Translations under genes and position numbers: made by a program
Assembly (NCBI GenBank): GCA_029838215.1
Contig: JALGVI010000073.1
Span: 1 to 14,375 of the forward strand
Reading direction: 5' to 3'
DNA: 14,375 nucleotides
DNA from: Candidatus Helarchaeota archaeon
GTDB lineage: Archaea; Asgardarchaeota; Lokiarchaeia; Helarchaeales; RDOG01
In this document: one piece after another, positions 1,124 through 11,448 of the stretch
How the letters are laid out: each line of letters opens with the position of its first letter
How positions within the stretch are numbered: the stretch's first letter is position 1
The notes under the pieces: generated by a model
Database searches by the model: none
What the model saw: the letters and a program-made list of their open reading frames with translations, nothing else
Told to the model about the DNA's origin: nothing

Positions 1124-1774
1124 ATGAGCGAGAACTTGAAGAAACTGAAGGATTTTATCGTCGAGCTCGAAAAGGAAAATGCTCTCGAATTGGCAAAAAA
1201 AGTCATTGATGACAAGCAAGCCACGGCTAAAGACATGATTGATGTCATCACCGAAGCATTGGGTCGGATTGGCGAGCTATATCAGGAAGAAGAATATTAT
1301 CTTGCCGAACTCGTGTATGCAGGCGACATTGCAAAGACCCTGATGAATTATTTAGAACCGCTTTTGGTCGGAAATGCCGAGAAAGACGCCGCAAAGAAAA
1401 TCGTGATCGGTACCGTGCAAGGAGACATGCACGACATCGGCAAGAACATCGTTGGCACTTATGCTCGCGGGGCGGGATACGAAGTGATCGACCTCGGAAC
1501 GGACGTGTCCGCCGAGAAATTTGTAAACAAGGTCGAGGAATCAAATGCACGGATCTTGGGAATTTCGTGCCTTTTAACGGCAACCGATGGCGAATTGAAT
1601 AAGATATTTGCAGAATTGAAACAAAAGAATTTGGTCGACGTTAAAGTCGTAATCGGCGGTGCCGCAATGACCGAGAAAATGGCACGAGATCTCGAAGAAA
1701 AGAACGGAATCACGACGAAGTTCGCCTCAGATGCCATAACGGGCATCAAGATCTTCAACGAATTGATAGATTGA
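1124..1774 (+). CDS. Corrinoid (cobalamin-binding) protein of the MtaC/MttC/MtbC methyltransferase-system type
   Basis: N-terminal four-helix cap (...IGELYQEEEYYLAELVYAG) and the B12-binding motifs GTVQGDMHDIGKNIV (DxHxxG), DLG, SCLLT (SxL) and VVIGGA. Confidence 0.93.
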   Translation: MSENLKKLKDFIVELEKENALELAKKVIDDKQATAKDMIDVITEALGRIGELYQEEEYYLAELVYAGDIAKTLMNYLEPLLVGNAEKDAAKKIVIGTVQGDMHDIGKNIVGTYARGAGYEVIDLGTDVSAEKFVNKVEESNARILGISCLLTATDGELNKIFAELKQKNLVDVKVVIGGAAMTEKMARDLEEKNGITTKFASDAITGIKIFNELID

Positions 1775-1798: not shown

Positions 1799-3706
1799 TT
1801 ATTTCAAGAGCCACTCAAGACCGAGAGAGCTGACCTTTTCTTTCGTCGGCAGTCCCGTTTCCTTGCTCCATCCGCGTTCCTCGTAATAGTCGTCAAGCAT
1901 TTGCACGGCGATTTCGGGCGTGATCTCCACTCCGCCATAAAAATTTTGCAATTTCAACTGAATCTTGCCAAATTGCTTTGGTTCAAACCACACTTGCGGA
2001 AATTCATCATCGACCCTGGAAAAACCCTCTCTGGCGTTTAGAATTTTTAAAAGATTCCAACTGCGTTCTGCTGCCAATCGCAATTCATCGGGTGATGAAT
2101 CAAATCCCGTGACCGCGTTGTAAAATGCCGTCACGGACTCCAAACCGTAAAAACGATTTACGTGAGCCCGCGCGCAGACACCCAATGACGTGAGAACGGA
2201 GTACCAGTCTTCAGAATAGCGAGTCAACCGCCCAACGTGGATGCCCATTTCTTTAATTGGGGGTTTATAAAGTCCGCCCATTGCCGATTCGGGAATGCCC
2301 ATCCGGTTAAAATGCGTTCTGAACTTGTCCAGCGAACCGCCGGGAGACAGGTACGTGGGTGAGCCGCCTGAAGCAACGTGGGCACCTTTTGGATTGACCA
2401 CCTGTTCAAACTCCATCGTTCCCATGCGCAGCATTCTGGGATCAAAAACCACGTCTAACCCCTTAATCACGGGCATGTCTTTTTCAATATCTTCATATCT
2501 TTCAGCAAGTTTTTTCCAGCCATCAGCCAAGATGTTCCCGAATCCCTCTCGATTCGCAATCATCTCTATCATCCTGCTCAAGGTGGCATAATCACGTCTC
2601 CATTTCATTCCCGTTAGGTCTTCCGTGAGAATTCCCCTTTCAAATAACTCCGTGCAAAAATCCAACAATGCAGTGATCGTTAGTGAGTCCAAGCCGTGCC
2701 TGCTGATGAGGTCAAAGCCCTTTACGGCTTCGTTATAGGTGTTCAGGTCGTCAAGCAATAACATGAAAAACGGATTGATGACGGAGGACGTATAATTTAT
2801 CAGTCCTGAAAAATCGCCTTCTTTAATTTCGAGCACGTCCTTGTCCCCCAAAGGACAGGATGGACAGGCAATGCGACGTTTCTTCAACTTCCGCACGTAG
2901 GTGCGTTCACTGGCATGCTTGGCTTTATCCTTGCGACCTTGAGCACCCAGAAGAGCTCCTACGGGCGTTCCCCGTAACATCCCCAACTTGTGCAGGTCTT
3001 TTCTGTGCGGCCAATTTCGAATTCGGTCGTATAGTTTTCGAAAGAGAGCGTTGAATTCCTTCGGTCTTGCAATTTCGGTGCCTTTAGTCCCCTTGACCAT
3101 GATGGCTTTCAGGTTTTTAAATCCCATTACAGCCCCAAGACCGCCCCTTCCAAAAGTTGATGTCTTGTCAATCAACGTGAGTGCAGATTTCACGAGGTTC
3201 TCCCCAGCTTTTCCAATTGCGATCACGCCGCAATCTCCAAACTTATCTTTTACCTGATCAGTCGTTTCCATGATGTCCTTGCCCCACAGGTTCCCTGCGT
3301 CAAGGAGCTCGAAATGCTCGTCCTGAACTGACAAGAAAACGGGCCTCTCTGCCGCACCCGAGATGATCAGGTGATCAAAGCCCGAGTGTTTCAAGTGCAT
3401 TCCGAAACTCATGCTTCCGCAAACGTGCGCAATTGCCCCCGTGGCAGGAAACTTGCAGGTCCCAACGATCCTTGAGGACCCCGGCGTCAGTGTCCCGACA
3501 AGCGGACCGGCTCCGATGATTATCTTATTATCGGATGACAAAGCCTCGGTCTTTGGTTTGAGATGGTCAGCGGCGAGCTTGCAATTCATTCCGAAACCGC
3601 CAATGAACGACTGCACGTCCTTTAAATTTAATTCCTCGATTGAGAACTTGTTGTCCGTCAAATTAACACGCAGGATCTTCCCCGAATAGCCGTGCCACGA
3701 CATCAT
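1799..3706 (-). CDS. aor: Aldehyde:ferredoxin oxidoreductase family (W/Mo-bis-pterin) catalytic subunit, divergent
   Basis: Shows GYSGKILRVNLT, IIIGAGPLVGT, IGKAGENLV, FGRGGLGAVMGFKNLKAI, HGLD, DPR, SLGVC, AERSWNL..NAREGF and YYEERGW. The start is moved from 3775 to ATG 3706, based on GGAGG at 3714-3718 and an ATGA overlap with the upstream stop (3703-3705). This gives 635 aa. Confidence 0.92.
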   Translation of the reverse strand: MMSWHGYSGKILRVNLTDNKFSIEELNLKDVQSFIGGFGMNCKLAADHLKPKTEALSSDNKIIIGAGPLVGTLTPGSSRIVGTCKFPATGAIAHVCGSMSFGMHLKHSGFDHLIISGAAERPVFLSVQDEHFELLDAGNLWGKDIMETTDQVKDKFGDCGVIAIGKAGENLVKSALTLIDKTSTFGRGGLGAVMGFKNLKAIMVKGTKGTEIARPKEFNALFRKLYDRIRNWPHRKDLHKLGMLRGTPVGALLGAQGRKDKAKHASERTYVRKLKKRRIACPSCPLGDKDVLEIKEGDFSGLINYTSSVINPFFMLLLDDLNTYNEAVKGFDLISRHGLDSLTITALLDFCTELFERGILTEDLTGMKWRRDYATLSRMIEMIANREGFGNILADGWKKLAERYEDIEKDMPVIKGLDVVFDPRMLRMGTMEFEQVVNPKGAHVASGGSPTYLSPGGSLDKFRTHFNRMGIPESAMGGLYKPPIKEMGIHVGRLTRYSEDWYSVLTSLGVCARAHVNRFYGLESVTAFYNAVTGFDSSPDELRLAAERSWNLLKILNAREGFSRVDDEFPQVWFEPKQFGKIQLKLQNFYGGVEITPEIAVQMLDDYYEERGWSKETGLPTKEKVSSLGLEWLLK

Positions 3707-3945
3707 TCTTCCGCCTCCACGAGTGACAGCGCGCCGTACAAGCAGTGCCGTGCGCAAATTCCACAATTCGTGCATTCTTCCAAGAAGGTGATTTGAGGCA
3801 TCAATTCATGACAGATTATCCGAACGTGAGCGAGTTCAGGCGCAAATTTATCATGATACGTGTACGCACAGATGAATTGACAAATCCTGCAACCCGAACA
3901 TTTCTCGACGTTAATGGCGATTTTTGAAATTGTCTTCCCCGACAA
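3703..3945 (-). CDS. Small 2x[4Fe-4S] protein, probable electron-transfer subunit of the AOR-family enzyme
   Basis: CSGCRICQFIC and CTNCGICARHC (two CxxCxxCxxxC motifs). TTG start. Its TGA overlaps the AOR ATG. Confidence 0.85.
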   Translation of the reverse strand: MSGKTISKIAINVEKCSGCRICQFICAYTYHDKFAPELAHVRIICHELMPQITFLEECTNCGICARHCLYGALSLVEAEE

Positions 3946-6526: not shown

Positions 6527-7501
6527 CTATCGTTTTATTTTATCGGGCAAGTAGAAATCATACTTTTTTCGCAAGATCTTGGTCTTGATGAACCGGTCCA
6601 TTCGTCGAAATCCTTGAAAAATTACCCAAATTCGCTTGTCACCTTTATAATAAGACTCGATTTCTTCCAAAGTGAATGGTTCCATTTCGAATTGTTTCCC
6701 TTCGTTCGTGAAGAACTCGTTCACGAGGTCGATCAAGGAAGGCACGATTTCCGGTAATTGTTCCTTGTAGAAGTTTGCGAGTAAATCCGTGACGACGGAC
6801 CTGAAATCATAGTACCTGTCGACCACCTCTTGAAGGAAAAGTAATTTTAAGAGCCATCGCAACCCCGAAGGCGCGCTCTTTAAAAATAGAACGGGTTCCA
6901 TCGCTTCTTCGCCATCAATTCGGAATAACGGCGTCGATGTGTCAACGTACGAAAGCCTGGCTTGTTCCGTGACGCGCGGGTCATTTTCGTCATAATCGAC
7001 CACGGCCCAATTTGATATCTGCCCGTCAAAACCGATTTCTAAATTGGGCACTTTTTTCTGGTTGAAGTCCCATACTTTCGTGAGTTCTTTCAAGATCAAC
7101 CCGACCAGAATCTTTATCTCTTCATCGCTGACGTGATGGATTACCTGATTACCGATGGAAGCAGGATTCAACTTCTCCTGCACGCAAAATAACGTGATTT
7201 TCTTTTTTTTCTTGCCTGAAAACACCCAGTCCGTTCCATACGGGGGAACGTTGATCCCGACTTCTTCTTTTAGCAGGCGATTGTATTCGTTATAGGCATT
7301 GACGTGCCTTGCTACCTGTTCTTCCGTGTCAAATATCGGGAGCCGTTTGAAAGCCAATCCTTCATTTTTTTCGGTTAAAATTTCGAATACGAGACTTATT
7401 TCACCAAATCCGAGAACTCGAATGGGAACGGGGCCGTCCTCGGGTTGTCTCGTGTCAAGCATCCGTTCGAATTCTTCCAAGAGCTCGTGATCGATCTTCA
7501 T
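6527..7501 (-). CDS. Protein-kinase-like (PKL/APH-type fold) hypothetical protein, resembling DUF6206 proteins
   Basis: Gly-rich loop LGFGEISLV, beta3 lysine AFK52, catalytic loop D159-GQIS-N164 and metal-binding YVD187. RBS GGAGG at 7514-7518. The DUF6206 label is from memory and needs an HMM check. Confidence 0.8.
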   Translation of the reverse strand: MKIDHELLEEFERMLDTRQPEDGPVPIRVLGFGEISLVFEILTEKNEGLAFKRLPIFDTEEQVARHVNAYNEYNRLLKEEVGINVPPYGTDWVFSGKKKKKITLFCVQEKLNPASIGNQVIHHVSDEEIKILVGLILKELTKVWDFNQKKVPNLEIGFDGQISNWAVVDYDENDPRVTEQARLSYVDTSTPLFRIDGEEAMEPVLFLKSAPSGLRWLLKLLFLQEVVDRYYDFRSVVTDLLANFYKEQLPEIVPSLIDLVNEFFTNEGKQFEMEPFTLEEIESYYKGDKRIWVIFQGFRRMDRFIKTKILRKKYDFYLPDKIKR

Positions 7502-7525
7502 TTTTCCAAATCCCCTCCTATTTTC

Positions 7526-8830
7526 TCATTTCGGCATCGGTAATTTTTTAAGTGCGACATCCAATCGTGAGAGAATTTCGTCAATGTCGTCCGATTCCAC
7601 GATGAGAGGCGGCATTAATTTTATGGTTTTCTCATTATTTCCGCAAAAATCTGCAAGAATGCCATTCTCGATCATGCTCAGGGTATAGCCCAGCCCGTAC
7701 CTGTCGTTGATGAATTCCACGCCCCACATTAATCCACGTCCTCGAACGTCAGTTATCAATTTTCCGAATTCTTCCTTGAATTCCATCAGTCCGTTTCCCA
7801 ATTGTCTGCCCATTTCCCTGACGTGTTTTAAAAATGCGGGTTGCGAAATGATTTCGAGCATTCTTCGACTCACGTAGCAGCCCAATTCTGAACCTCCCGT
7901 CGTGCTGATGTGGAGAAATGGATCGTCCTCGAAAACCTCCTCGATGAATGGCTTGTAACTGCAGGTGGCAAGCGGATAATACCCTGCAGTCATTCCCTTG
8001 GCAAGAACCACGATGTCAGGGACAATCTTGGCATCCTCGTATAGACCTCCATCCAAAGCCCATGGATGCCCCGTTCTCGCCAAGCCCGTTTGAACCTCAT
8101 CGGCGATGAAAAGCACTCCCTTCTCATCACACAGTTCCCTTACTTGAGGAAAATAATCCTTCGGCGGGATCAGGATGCCTCCCGTTGCGGGAATGGGCTC
8201 GAAAATGCAACACGCCGTTTCTTCATCAATTACCTTCCGGAAATCATCTATATCGCCGAATTTAACTTTATGAAAGTCTGGCGGGTTCCAGAGAAATGCG
8301 TCCTTGAATCGCGGATCCCCTGCCCCCAATGCAAGACCCGTCACGCCGTGATATGCCGTCCATGCAGAGATGATTTTCTTCCGCTTGGTCGATGCCCTTG
8401 CCAACTTGATGGCGAGATCAATTGCTTCGCCGCCACCCACGCAGAATTGCGTTTTTGAAATGTCTCCCGGAAGCAGTCCTGCTAGCTTTCTCGCAAGAAG
8501 CGCCCTTTGCTCGCTGAGAAGGTGGTGATCGCCAATGTTTAGCCCGCCATCTATCCCTTCCTTGAGAGCTTTAATGATCTCGGGATGGTTGTGTCCCAAG
8601 TTGAATACGCCTCCACTCGTCCTGCAGTCGATCAAAACCCGTGGTGGCTTGTTCTTGCGGACACCTTCCAACGTGGTAATCCGAATGCCTTCTCTTTTAC
8701 CTTGAATGACACCAAAGCCAATACTCTTGAAAAAGTTGGCTTTTGGCTCTGAAACATGTCGGGCATAATCCTTGATGAGAGACCTCTGACTTTCGGTCCC
8801 GATAACCTGCTTTTCGGGAGACATGAACAT
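7526..8830 (-). CDS. Class III PLP-dependent enzyme, putrescine aminotransferase (PatA)-like
   Basis: FNLGHNHP, YHG, FEPI, IADEVQTGLARTG, VLAKG (PLP Lys at 7997-7999), DDPFLHISTTGG (cf. PatA DNPFLHTTTFGG), RGRGLM and NNEKTIKLMPPL. ATG 8830 is preferred over GTG 8833 on AGGA spacing. Confidence 0.92.
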   Translation of the reverse strand: MFMSPEKQVIGTESQRSLIKDYARHVSEPKANFFKSIGFGVIQGKREGIRITTLEGVRKNKPPRVLIDCRTSGGVFNLGHNHPEIIKALKEGIDGGLNIGDHHLLSEQRALLARKLAGLLPGDISKTQFCVGGGEAIDLAIKLARASTKRKKIISAWTAYHGVTGLALGAGDPRFKDAFLWNPPDFHKVKFGDIDDFRKVIDEETACCIFEPIPATGGILIPPKDYFPQVRELCDEKGVLFIADEVQTGLARTGHPWALDGGLYEDAKIVPDIVVLAKGMTAGYYPLATCSYKPFIEEVFEDDPFLHISTTGGSELGCYVSRRMLEIISQPAFLKHVREMGRQLGNGLMEFKEEFGKLITDVRGRGLMWGVEFINDRYGLGYTLSMIENGILADFCGNNEKTIKLMPPLIVESDDIDEILSRLDVALKKLPMPK

Positions 8831-8894
8831 CACTTGTCCTAATTGAGAGAATTTTGAAATGATTCTCCTGCGATCTTTTTTCCCGTCCTCCCGA

Positions 8895-8906
8895 CTTAAA
8901 TCTTTC
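8895..8906 (-). promoter_or_regulatory. Putative BRE/TATA (GAAAGA-TTTAAG) for the PLP enzyme/kinase unit
   Basis: The minus strand reads ...gggaaagatttaagtc..., about 65 nt upstream of the start: a purine-rich tract directly followed by TTTAAG. Confidence 0.35.
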
Positions 8907-8914
8907 CCTTACGG

Positions 8915-10511
8915 GAAATTTCAGGGGAAACAAGCATTCGATAGGAGCCCTTCCGTTCTCGTCTGGCTGAGATCGGGCGATCTCAGGTCCGACAAATTCC
9001 GATTCCATTCCTCCACGGCAAATTCTGGCTTGTAATCCCTGAATGCCGTGGGCTTGTTGATCAAGTCGGGGCGATGTACTTTCACGGCGGTCAGAGCCGT
9101 CAGGAGCTCGATGCACTTCAATTTTCCGATGCACATCCGCGAATTCTCGCGCCCCCGGTTGTTCATTCGATCCGCGTGGTACACGACCTTGGCGGGCGAA
9201 AAAGCCCGCTCGATTTTCGTCCGAAAATTCAGGAGCCGCTCCAAATGTGGGTGCATTTCGGGCGGAACCTGCGAAATGTTGAGGTACTTGCGGGGGCCAA
9301 TTTGGATCACGTCCTGCTTGATGTTTTTCCTGGCGCAAATCAACGGGACGATCCCGGCAGCGGCCACCAAGTTCAAGGATTTCTTGGAGTAGGGGCCGGC
9401 ATCCGAAAGCAGCATCTTGGAGGGTGGGAGCCTGAGGGTTCGCAACTCCTGAAATGTCTCCCTGAAGATCGGATTGTCATTTCGATTGCCGGGAAAAGAT
9501 TGATAATGAACCGGCAGGTTGTATTTGGCACAGATGAAGGAGGAGTCCACGTACCCCAAGCCGCGAAATTTCCCGACGTGCTTGTATTTCCCGGCCTCCG
9601 CGTCTGCAAAAGCCTTCAACGTTTTATTCTTGTTTTTGGCGCAGTTACTTTCCAAGAAGCGTCCGTCCCAGATGATGATCTTGCAATCGATCACCTTGTA
9701 ACGGATGCCCTCCTGAACCAACGTGAAAGAGTAATCTTGAATGTTCCGGCTCCCGAGATGGTAGACTTGCTGTCCGTAATGTCCCGGATCTGGAATACTT
9801 TCCGGAGGAATTCCCACGGCATCAATCAGCCCCGGCGTGTATCTCAAGGCATCAATCCAGCGTTCAAACCGCCACACGCCGCGCTTGTACCGGGCCATTT
9901 CCAGCCGGAACACGTCGGCCATCGATAAATCCTGATAGAGCCGCTCTTGGAACGCGGTCAGGGGGAGCTCGTCCCAAAATTTCAGCGAATTAAACCGGAA
10001 CAGGTATTCCAAATAGCCCGTGGAGCTCTTATGGGCTTGTAAAGCCCGGTACTCGACCAACTGCCGGAAAGAGGGCGGGATCGGAGGCAAGTCAAGTTTT
10101 TGTCGGTAAGGGAGCTTGAAGCCCCCGGGTAGACCGGTTGCCGGACTTACAAGGAACCGGCTCAGATGCACTTGCTTTGGGGAAAAAAACATTTTTTTCA
10201 CGCGCTTTTTTCTTCTCTTGATCCCCATGCCGCCCAACTCTTTTTCTACTCGGTATCGATCCCGCGGTTTGGACATGTCAAAGTAGTGGATTTGGGGAGT
10301 TCCCAAAAAGTCGGGGACTTGCATCTGAATGAGCTTTCTCTTTTTCCAGACCAAGATGAACATGGTTAATATCTTGCGACCTCACCTATAAGTGTCTTTT
10401 GGCTTGGGTTACAAGCCTTGAAATGAGACTCCATTCTCTAATTTTCTCAAAGTACGTGTTCATCTCAGGAAAAGTTGGACTCGCTAGACCCCTCCCTGAA
10501 TCGAAATTTCA
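8915..10511 (-). mobile_element. Putative insertion sequence (boundaries uncertain)
   Basis: A single transposase ORF flanked by the direct repeat GAAATTTCA (8915-8923 and 10503-10511). The right copy coincides with an abrupt shift to AT-rich DNA. No convincing long terminal inverted repeat was found. Confidence 0.5.
8921..10363 (-). CDS. DDE transposase of the IS4-like superfamily (DDE_Tnp_1 type)
   Basis: Candidate catalytic residues LIDAVG (D), LLSDAGPYS (D) and RTKIERAFSPAK (E). The last fits the R-x3-E-x6-K signature. Also QSFPGNRNDNPIF and GIVPLICARKN, typical of the insertion-domain region. The exact start codon is uncertain. Confidence 0.88.
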   Translation of the reverse strand: MFILVWKKRKLIQMQVPDFLGTPQIHYFDMSKPRDRYRVEKELGGMGIKRRKKRVKKMFFSPKQVHLSRFLVSPATGLPGGFKLPYRQKLDLPPIPPSFRQLVEYRALQAHKSSTGYLEYLFRFNSLKFWDELPLTAFQERLYQDLSMADVFRLEMARYKRGVWRFERWIDALRYTPGLIDAVGIPPESIPDPGHYGQQVYHLGSRNIQDYSFTLVQEGIRYKVIDCKIIIWDGRFLESNCAKNKNKTLKAFADAEAGKYKHVGKFRGLGYVDSSFICAKYNLPVHYQSFPGNRNDNPIFRETFQELRTLRLPPSKMLLSDAGPYSKKSLNLVAAAGIVPLICARKNIKQDVIQIGPRKYLNISQVPPEMHPHLERLLNFRTKIERAFSPAKVVYHADRMNNRGRENSRMCIGKLKCIELLTALTAVKVHRPDLINKPTAFRDYKPEFAVEEWNRNLSDLRSPDLSQTRTEGLLSNACFP

Positions 10512-10629
10512 TCCGTCAAAAAGATTTATATTTGACAATAAGGTTAAAAAACGTGATCAGATTGATTTAAAAATTCTCTCAATTATTCTAGTAATAATTT
10601 TTTTACAATTATATTTTGGATGTTTTAGC

Positions 10630-11448
10630 ATGGCTAGACCTCTTTGGTTTGTTGAATTACTCAAGAAATTATTTCGGACTCGGCATTTCCTAGCTCGATT
10701 AACAAAAGTTCCAATTCTTGGAAGCATGATGAAAATGATGATTTTTGAGGGAGATCATCTGGTCTGTCTACCAAAAGATCATTTAATTCAAATTAATCAA
10801 TCTGTTGAAGTCGATGAAAATACCGTTTTACCATCTCAAGTAGTTGAATATTTCATCAAGAAAGCAAAATATAGATGGATAATGAATTTTTGCATTTGTC
10901 GTGAATCAAATAAATGTAAGGATTATCCCCGAGAGCTAGGCTGTTTATTTCTCGGTGAAGCCGTTTTAGGAATTAATCCAAAACTTGGTCGGTTGGTTTC
11001 TCGAGAGGAAGCCATTGAACATGTAAAAAAATGTCGTGAAGCAGGACTAGTTCATTTCATAGGAAAAAATAAACTGGATTCGATATGGTTAGGGATCGGA
11101 CCTGAGGAGAAACTCTTGACTATCTGTTCTTGCTGTCCTTGTTGTTGTATTTCGGGGGGATTAAAATACATGTCAAGTCAAATTGCTGACATGTATTCAA
11201 AGTTAGGTGGAATCGAAGTCAAAGTAACAGATCTGTGCGTCGGATGCGGAACTTGCACTAAAAATGTTTGTTTTATGGATGCCATTCAATTAATAGATAA
11301 TAAAGCCGTTATAAATTCAAAGAAATGCATGGGTTGCGGTCGATGCGTGGATATTTGTCCCAGAAAGGCAATTCAACTTACCATGCACGACCCATCTATT
11401 ATTCAAAAGACCATCAATAATTTATCTAAACGTGTTTCAGTCACATAA
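10630..11448 (+). CDS. Iron-sulfur cluster-binding protein with a CxCCxCCC motif and a C-terminal 2x[4Fe-4S] ferredoxin domain
   Basis: CICRESNKC...CLFLG, GLVH, ICSCCPCCC, CVGCGTCTKNVC and CMGCGRCVDICP. The start is reassigned to ATG 10630 (MARPLWF..., 272 aa), because the upstream extension from TTG 10399 is non-conserved-looking and would overlap the IS end. Confidence 0.88.
   Translation: MARPLWFVELLKKLFRTRHFLARLTKVPILGSMMKMMIFEGDHLVCLPKDHLIQINQSVEVDENTVLPSQVVEYFIKKAKYRWIMNFCICRESNKCKDYPRELGCLFLGEAVLGINPKLGRLVSREEAIEHVKKCREAGLVHFIGKNKLDSIWLGIGPEEKLLTICSCCPCCCISGGLKYMSSQIADMYSKLGGIEVKVTDLCVGCGTCTKNVCFMDAIQLIDNKAVINSKKCMGCGRCVDICPRKAIQLTMHDPSIIQKTINNLSKRVSVT

Follow-up and report, generated by a model that had tools for sequence, protein, structure and literature searches.

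A DUF6206 kinase-like protein and a PatA-related PLP enzyme encoded by a conserved gene pair of Asgard archaea: a candidate kinase/phospho-lyase module

Two co-oriented genes lie on the minus strand of contig JALGVI010000073.1 (assembly GCA_029838215.1) of a Candidatus Helarchaeota archaeon, the whole 14,375-nucleotide stretch of which is referred to here as the window. One encodes a pyridoxal 5′-phosphate (PLP) enzyme of the class III fold and the other a protein with the features of a kinase. Do these genes constitute a functional unit, and which reaction would the PLP enzyme then perform? A reading of the bare sequence (the original prediction) had proposed a kinase/phospho-lyase module, possibly acting on an amino alcohol. 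Our analysis revealed that the pair is a real, conserved and co-inherited module. By analogy with known systems, we tentatively favour the view that it acts as a kinase plus phospho-lyase on an amine-bearing small molecule, although we stop short of calling this probable. The pair is undescribed in the literature searched, and the type of system to which it would belong (kinase-dependent PLP deamination) is already known.

The locus consists of the following features, given in the direction of transcription of the pair:
8834..8920, minus strand: non-coding DNA that separates the transposase stop from the start of the PLP gene, with an A/T-rich TTTAAG element; presumed promoter, from sequence only
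7526..8833, minus strand: class III PLP-fold enzyme P0002, PatA-related, without the Glu/Arg keto-acid gateway (Pfam Aminotran_3); 435 aa from the GTG, 432 aa from the ATG at 8824
7502..7525, minus strand: 24-bp intergenic spacer with a AGGAGGGG ribosome-binding motif for the kinase gene, read from the sequence
6527..7501, minus strand: DUF6206-family protein-kinase-like enzyme P0001, 324 aa, probable small-molecule kinase

The co-orientation and the 24-bp gap, both claimed in the original prediction, are as described, the spacer between the two open reading frames (ORFs) being exactly 7502-7525. The PLP ORF opens with a GTG at 8833 and contains in-frame ATGs at 8830 (taken as the end of the gene in the original prediction) and 8824; the last of these is the probable start, since a recorded protein of 432 aa, identical (100%) to the ORF over 99% of its length, fits it. 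Each gene had been assigned its own ribosome-binding site. This holds for the kinase gene, which is preceded by the Shine-Dalgarno-like motif AGGAGGGG approximately 10 nt 5′ of its ATG, and is doubtful for the PLP gene, where only a weak AGGA motif is present just 5′ of the candidate starts. A single operon is the best explanation for the arrangement of the two genes. A search among sequencing runs listed no RNA run, and a single DNA run that contains a 0.07 share of the words. Their database relatives carry labels such as Promethearchaeota and Lokiarchaeota.

In order to determine the distribution of the pair, we surveyed 400 Asgard genomes with protein queries, membership of the PLP clade being defined by E <= 1e-90. 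Both genes were found in 122 genomes, the kinase gene only in 17, the PLP gene only in 17 and neither in 244; these are counts over related genomes, which are not independent samples. The tallies of the two genes agree closely within families (denoted here by our own handles f, with genera g, the window belonging to f1): 9/14 in f5, 99/135 in f6 and 3/4 in f7, for both genes. In three or more of the "kinase only" genomes, the kinase gene adjoins a PLP gene that is truncated or gives a lower score, in two cases at a contig end. A six-frame search with the Pfam DUF6206 model detected the kinase in 119 genomes, compared with 139 for the protein query, and missed it in all five of the high-completeness genomes that were rechecked, in each of which the protein query recovered it. 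The survey based on the Pfam model was therefore replaced, because that model undercounts (approximately 20 Asgard genomes missed), and any census of DUF6206 in archaea that relies on the family model will do likewise.

The two genes are directly adjacent, with the PLP gene first, in f1, f5, f7, genus g15 and part of g27 of f6, and one f16 genome. The same order is found in every f31 genome in which both genes were detected, where the PLP protein is 42–45% identical to that of the window. At 23 adjacent loci, the spacing between the longest ORFs ranges from a 41-bp overlap to a 67-bp gap. Lokiarchaeum ossiferum and an unrelated Asgard metagenome-assembled genome (MAG) contain the same Aminotran_3–DUF6206 pair within wholly different flanking genes, and clustering of the ORFs of 33 loci revealed that only the kinase and PLP genes are common across lineages. 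No kinase–PLP fusion protein longer than 567 aa was found, which is weak evidence. The conserved pairing of this kinase family with this PLP clade, which the original prediction had left to a survey of gene neighbourhoods, is thus borne out by the 122 of 400 genomes that contain both genes and by their adjacency in many genera.

The pair also occurs in bacteria, as seen in five independent loci (a sample of contexts, not a census), which derive from a Leptospiraceae MAG, an NCBI MAG, a JGI contig, a contig in a Bacteroidota-labelled cluster and a Logan contig. In all five, a gene of the same PLP clade is placed directly upstream of the kinase gene, and the kinases share 36–43% identity with that of the window. 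Across 27 loci, the pairwise distances of the kinases and of the PLP enzymes are correlated (r = 0.85; Mantel test, reached by 0 of 2000 permutations), and maximum-likelihood trees of the two proteins contain the same major groups. In both trees a g2 genome of the window's own family f1 groups with genus g15 of f6 and not with the window, which suggests that the pair can be transferred as a unit between Asgard lineages.

What kind of protein is the putative kinase? P0001 matches Pfam DUF6206 (PF19709) with 81.4 bits (gathering cut-off 30.4) over profile positions 16–271 of 271. An exhaustive, profile-free search identified 544 relatives, of which 83 diverse full-length sequences (27–58% identity) were aligned; all 83 exceed the DUF6206 cut-off. 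Pfam assigns no function to this family, its model is distant from the Asgard members, and the name DUF6206 is absent from the literature searched. A sequence search of the PDB with the kinase gave no match, even at E = 10.

The catalytic core of the DUF6206 kinase is intact, as judged from the conserved residues, which include (i) a Gly-rich loop, G31-x-G33-E34-x-S36 (G31 in 73/83 and G33 in 83/83 relatives), (ii) the beta3 lysine in K52-R53 (82/83 and 83/83, respectively), (iii) a catalytic loop, D159-x-Q-x-S-N164-W (D159 and N164 each in 82/83), and (iv) the metal-binding D187 (82/83). No alphaC Glu is conserved at 75% or more in this alignment. The predicted structure is a bilobal kinase fold of high confidence (predicted local distance difference test score, pLDDT, 95.8). 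The downstream gene was thus rightly described as encoding a kinase fold. This order of motifs (Gly-rich loop, beta3 Lys, D-x4-N, metal-binding Asp), together with the fold, is that of the PKL/ELK superfamily. The five best structural matches (VIA-align), whose scores are statistically tied with one another, are:
6sum: amicoumacin kinase, 11.8
8k20: Bud32, 11.6
6ef6: microcompartment aminopropanol kinase, 11.4
3csv: APH-like protein, 11.3
4ocj: N-acetylhexosamine 1-kinase, 11.1

These are followed by a macrolide phosphotransferase, the choline kinase LicA and several APHs, so that small-molecule kinases make up the majority of the top matches, and their alignments span most of the model. According to its entry title, 6ef6 is a microcompartment-associated aminopropanol kinase; its partner is a phospho-lyase of the class III fold. 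On the basis of the motifs and of the model, P0001 is most probably a small-molecule kinase of the protein-kinase-like superfamily. Several acidic and aromatic residues of the C-lobe (Y230, D239, E247, Y285, D288 and Y314), kept in at least 76 of the 83 relatives, could bind a cationic amine, by analogy with choline and aminoglycoside kinases. Assignment to the APH/choline-kinase family itself (PF01636) was rejected. P0001 gave no APH match at E <= 1, and the APH model matched only 2 of the 83 relatives, weakly (best 3.4e-4). Moreover, the residue two positions before D159 is Gly (I-G-F-D), where the Brenner motif H-x-D-x4-N would need His.

The DUF6206 family is itself diverse. Some members are 430–527 aa long (P0130, P0133, P0147 and P0153) and carry approximately 120–240 extra N-terminal residues, in which no significant Pfam domain was found. 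Some g24 and g25 genomes encode two DUF6206 paralogues, with approximately 59% and 46% identity to the window protein; they are placed about 5 kb apart on the same strand in two genomes (G210:C33:107033-113701 and G213:C128:4836-11659), and occur also in G208, G217 and G174. Two GC-rich bacterial contigs (L053:1305-6776 and L054) contain a DUF6206 subfamily of 28% identity, accompanied by two xylose-isomerase-like TIM-barrel genes, an MFS_2 gene and an unknown gene of 252 aa, in a string that lacks a PLP gene. This subfamily may represent a separate sugar-kinase branch.

The reaction catalyzed by the pair depends mainly on the PLP enzyme. The identification of the upstream gene as class III was correct, P0002 matching Pfam Aminotran_3 (PF00202) with 251.3 bits, above the cut-off. 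Its best NCBIfam match is the putrescine aminotransferase PatA (NF008570), and its best match in a PDB sequence search is the PatA structure 4uox (207 bits, query residues 17–422), the alignment including the extra N-terminal region of PatA. Acetylornithine aminotransferases come next (approximately 160 bits), class III racemases and epimerases are also among the matches, and ETNPPL (6tor, 112 bits) is placed below most other matches listed. Three assignments were rejected. P0002 scores 259.9 bits against the PatA model (cut-off 612) and 179.9 bits against that of the ammonia-lyase PbfA (NF049939; cut-off 525), and the gap between 6tor and PatA in the PDB search places it outside the AGXT2-like ETNPPL/PHYKPL clade. 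Members of the clade commonly bear the labels "aspartate aminotransferase family", "putrescine aminotransferase" or "LysW transaminase", which would be mis-annotations if the phospho-lyase reading is right.

The residues that distinguish transaminases from other class III enzymes have been described for several members. In the PatA structure, Lys300, Glu243, Gln274 and Arg426 are strictly conserved, the Glu243-Arg426 ion pair is tied to the binding of 2-oxoglutarate in the second half-reaction, and Gln119 contacts the distal group of the substrate through a hydrogen bond to the distal amine of putrescine (PMC4244111). The corresponding E211 and R398 of GabT form the "gateway system" of class III transaminases, and R141 binds the distal carboxylate. 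The lyase PbfA lacks all three, with Lys at the Arg position, and ETNPPL has His at the position of R141 (PMC8154272 supplement). The sequences of 122 clade members were placed in one alignment with PatA and GabT of E. coli. In the PatA numbering, which matches that of PMC4244111, the equivalent positions are:
PatA Lys300: K279, invariant in 122
PatA Asp271: D245, invariant in 122
PatA Gln274: Q248, invariant in 122
PatA Phe180: Y161, invariant in 122
PatA Thr332∗: T311∗, Thr in 117/122 and Ser in 5/122
PatA Glu243 (GabT E211), gateway Glu: T217, 121/122
PatA Arg426 (GabT R398), gateway Arg: position 405, K 100, I 16, Q 3, V 3, never R (n = 122)
PatA Lys183 (GabT R141), distal carboxylate: position 164, V 98, H 23 (n = 122)
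PatA Gln119: H103, invariant in 122
PatA Phe91, pocket entrance: G74, invariant in 122
PatA Leu419, pocket entrance: G398, 116/122

His at position 164 occurs in f31 and in bacterial clade members. No basic residue is conserved across archaeal and bacterial members in the segment around position 405. Among the control sequences, both the Q-G-E-G/A-G motif and the Arg are present in PatA, GabT and ArgD of E. coli and in four class III paralogues from Asgard genomes, and HemL, which uses no external keto acid, is missing both gateway residues.

Judged by this alignment, the clade retains the machinery that forms the aldimine and abstracts the proton, and the canonical site for a keto-acid partner is lost. 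The replacement of the gateway pair led us to reject the keto-acid-dependent omega-transaminase type (GabT, PatA, ArgD, OAT). It favours a reaction free of a co-substrate, e.g. elimination of phosphate and ammonia, over ordinary transamination. The same alignment predicts a larger substrate pocket with an invariant His at the distal-group position. The two glycines at the pocket entrance (G74 and G398 for F91 and L419) and H103 would fit a larger polar or anionic substrate.

Comparison with E. coli PatA (YgjG) summarizes this mixture of features, since the two enzymes have all PLP-binding residues in common, while Glu243, Arg426, Lys183, Gln119, Phe91 and Leu419 of PatA are all replaced in the clade (in P0002 itself H103, V164, G74 and G398 stand in place of Q119, K183, F91 and L419). 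A further instructive case is PbfA, the (R)-1-hydroxy-2-aminoethylphosphonate ammonia-lyase, which has the class III fold and was annotated as a transaminase, and is in fact a lyase (PMC8154272). PbfA and the clade both lack the gateway Glu/Arg and the distal Arg, and the Lys that PbfA has at the Arg position is matched by Lys405 in most Asgard members. In contrast to the system described here, PbfA needs no kinase and is encoded within phosphonate gene clusters.

The coupling of a kinase to a phospho-lyase is known from HYKK (AGPHD1)/PHYKPL, from ethanolamine kinase/ETNPPL and from the aminopropanol kinase/lyase of mycobacterial microcompartments. The pair resembles these systems in that a kinase is linked, by adjacency and co-occurrence, to a class III PLP enzyme. 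It differs from them in the kinase, which is of the DUF6206 family here and of the APH/choline kinase type there. It differs from ETNPPL and PHYKPL also in the PLP enzyme, which is of the PatA lineage and not AGXT2-like; the likeness in chemistry is a proposal by analogy. The suggestion that the module was built from a different kinase family and a PatA-like scaffold is consequently in agreement with our results (DUF6206 and not APH; PatA as the best match). That of an analogous phospho-lyase module is upheld in part: the keto-acid gateway is lost and the pairing with the kinase is conserved, whereas the PLP enzyme falls outside the ETNPPL/PHYKPL clade (112 versus 207 bits).

Under the reading that we favour, the DUF6206 kinase would carry out the ATP-dependent phosphorylation of an amino alcohol or amino sugar, at a hydroxyl adjacent to the carbon that bears the amine. 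The PatA-derived enzyme would then bind this amine in an external aldimine and remove a proton, in the manner of an omega-transaminase. Phosphate would be eliminated without transfer of nitrogen to a keto acid, with the release of a carbonyl compound, ammonia and phosphate. A wider proposal, to which we give a somewhat doubtful standing, is that the clade represents a new family of PLP phospho-lyases independent of ETNPPL/PHYKPL and fed by a new family of small-molecule kinases. The two would form a catabolic pathway that has not been described before, with an amino sugar or amino alcohol as its substrate; it would be carried and exchanged as a unit by approximately one third of the sampled Asgard genomes and by several bacterial lineages. 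If true, this would assign a function to DUF6206, define a class III PLP clade, provide a second independent case of a transaminase scaffold turned into a kinase-dependent deaminating lyase, and give Asgard archaea, among them the cultured L. ossiferum, an additional route for scavenging nitrogen and carbon. The pair is small, self-contained and conserved, and is therefore directly testable with two recombinant proteins.

Several observations weigh against the phospho-lyase reading. No known lyase is as similar in sequence to the PLP enzyme as is the transaminase PatA, the loss of the gateway also fits other keto-acid-free reactions, and the one residue documented for ETNPPL is the His at the R141 position, where 98 of the 122 clade members have Val. 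More distant DUF6206 members (28–34% identity) occur without a PLP gene and adjoin genes for xylose-isomerase-like TIM barrels, with an MFS_2 transporter in one of two cases. In genera g25, g24, g17 and g18 of f6 the two genes are on the same strand, 2–16 kb apart, with genes of opposite orientation between them, and in many g26 genomes they are located on different contigs (the g26 genomes keep one clear PLP orthologue, with 54–63% identity compared with at most 33% for the next-best class III gene). The kinase and PLP genes thus need not be transcribed together. Finally, the neighbourhood of the pair in f6 and f16 repeatedly contains genes for HAD phosphatases and 2-hydroxyacid dehydrogenases, a finding that would better suit a route composed of a kinase, a transaminase and a phosphatase.

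Such a route is the strongest of the alternatives, although we consider it unlikely. The kinase would work with a genuine transaminase that acts on a phosphorylated amino sugar or alcohol, either with a partner other than an alpha-keto acid or with non-canonical binding of the keto acid; the kinase would supply or consume the phosphorylated substrate, and a phosphatase or dehydrogenase encoded elsewhere would complete a catabolic or biosynthetic pathway. The closest characterized relatives are indeed transaminases (PatA, 207–260 bits), the f6 and f16 neighbours just named would have a place in it, and the xylose-isomerase-like TIM barrels and MFS_2 transporters beside distant DUF6206 members agree with a sugar substrate. 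Sugar-related neighbours also recur near the pair itself: (i) a YdjC deacetylase and MFS sugar transporters surround it at a g8 locus (L073), (ii) an HGSNAT-like acyltransferase and a DUF362 protein are encoded in the same gene string in g15 (L062), and (iii) a GPH transporter and a beta-galactosidase are encoded between the kinase and PLP genes in g25. It is because of this recurrence that the pairing of a sugar-type kinase with a transaminase, already named as the alternative in the original prediction, was kept. On the other hand, all 122 clade members are without the equivalents of E211 and R398, with no conserved basic residue in that segment, and the Glu-Arg ion pair is treated as required for the second half-reaction (PMC4244111). 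Furthermore, the sugar and HAD neighbours are lineage-specific, being missing from f1, f5 (except for the g8 locus), f7, f31 and the bacterial loci.

It is improbable that the PLP enzyme catalyzes another reaction free of a co-substrate, such as racemization or epimerization, a HemL-like aminomutase reaction or one of the decarboxylation type, with the phosphate serving as a binding handle and not as a leaving group. Loss of the gateway is common to the aminomutase HemL, the PDB matches include racemases and epimerases of class III, and a phosphate handle could be bound by His103, which is invariant and occupies the distal-group site, but the clade is no closer to HemL or to the racemases than to PatA. 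We know of no precedent for a PLP enzyme of the racemase, epimerase or aminomutase type with a dedicated kinase, compared with three for kinase/lyase pairs. That DUF6206 is instead a protein kinase or regulator (e.g. of the PLP enzyme), or has an unrelated role such as cofactor salvage, so that the pairing would not reflect two steps on one metabolite, is very improbable, given that its TM-scores to protein kinases are low (0.30–0.41), most of the top structural matches are APH/choline-kinase-like small-molecule kinases, distant members occur in small-molecule (sugar) operons without a PLP gene, and strict co-inheritance with one PLP clade of remodelled pocket points to a shared metabolite.

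The neighbouring genes offer some indication of a possible substrate for the phospho-lyase module. Besides the sugar theme, an amide theme is seen, with a CN-hydrolase gene downstream of the kinase gene in f6 and a Peptidase_C69 gene (Cys-Ntn amidohydrolase) beside the pair, before or after it, in three of the five bacterial loci. None of these neighbours is universal. The lineage-specific neighbours hint at amino sugars or glycosides, or at amide-linked amines. Peptidase_C69 was rejected as a part of the Asgard module, its sole counterpart in the source genome being a weak match on another contig.

The other features of the window considered here are:
1124-1774, plus strand: B12-binding (corrinoid) protein gene adjoining the AOR gene
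1799-3775, minus strand: AOR-family gene (Pfam)
8921-10363, minus strand: DDE transposase, 480 aa (Pfam DDE_Tnp_1), with weak IS1634/IS5-type matches
10399..11448, plus strand: divergent Fe-S protein with a C-terminal 2x[4Fe-4S] domain (Pfam Fer4 matches at residues 275–328); N-terminal part unknown

The AOR-family gene is indeed located approximately 3 kb from the pair, with plus-strand genes between them. The proposed link between this enzyme and an aldehyde product of the pair did not hold, since comparison with 32 other loci did not show AOR as a recurrent neighbour, and the channelling of a product to it is without comparative support.

The transposase gene is placed between the upstream region of the operon and the divergent Fe-S gene, 35 bp from the start of the latter. 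Its G+C content (0.50–0.54) is higher than that of its flanks; neither convincing terminal inverted repeats nor a further copy within the assembly were found. The gene may have split an older divergent arrangement of the operon and the Fe-S gene, because seven f6 loci encode a homologue of the Fe-S protein in the vicinity of the kinase or PLP gene (e.g. L036:11862-12677, L058:3585-4397 and L055:6564-7379). Members of this protein family contain an N-terminal domain of approximately 190–270 aa and the C-terminal 2x[4Fe-4S] domain, and count as uncertain members of the module. The window Fe-S protein has no similarity to the DUF362 protein encoded ahead of the pair in g15, and the two are thus not one shared third component. 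In four loci (L036, L037, L040 and L059), the Fe-S gene is followed by a gene for a class I/II aminotransferase. Genes for methyltransferases of the MttB family and of the URO-D type are also present near the kinase gene in L036, L039 and L040.

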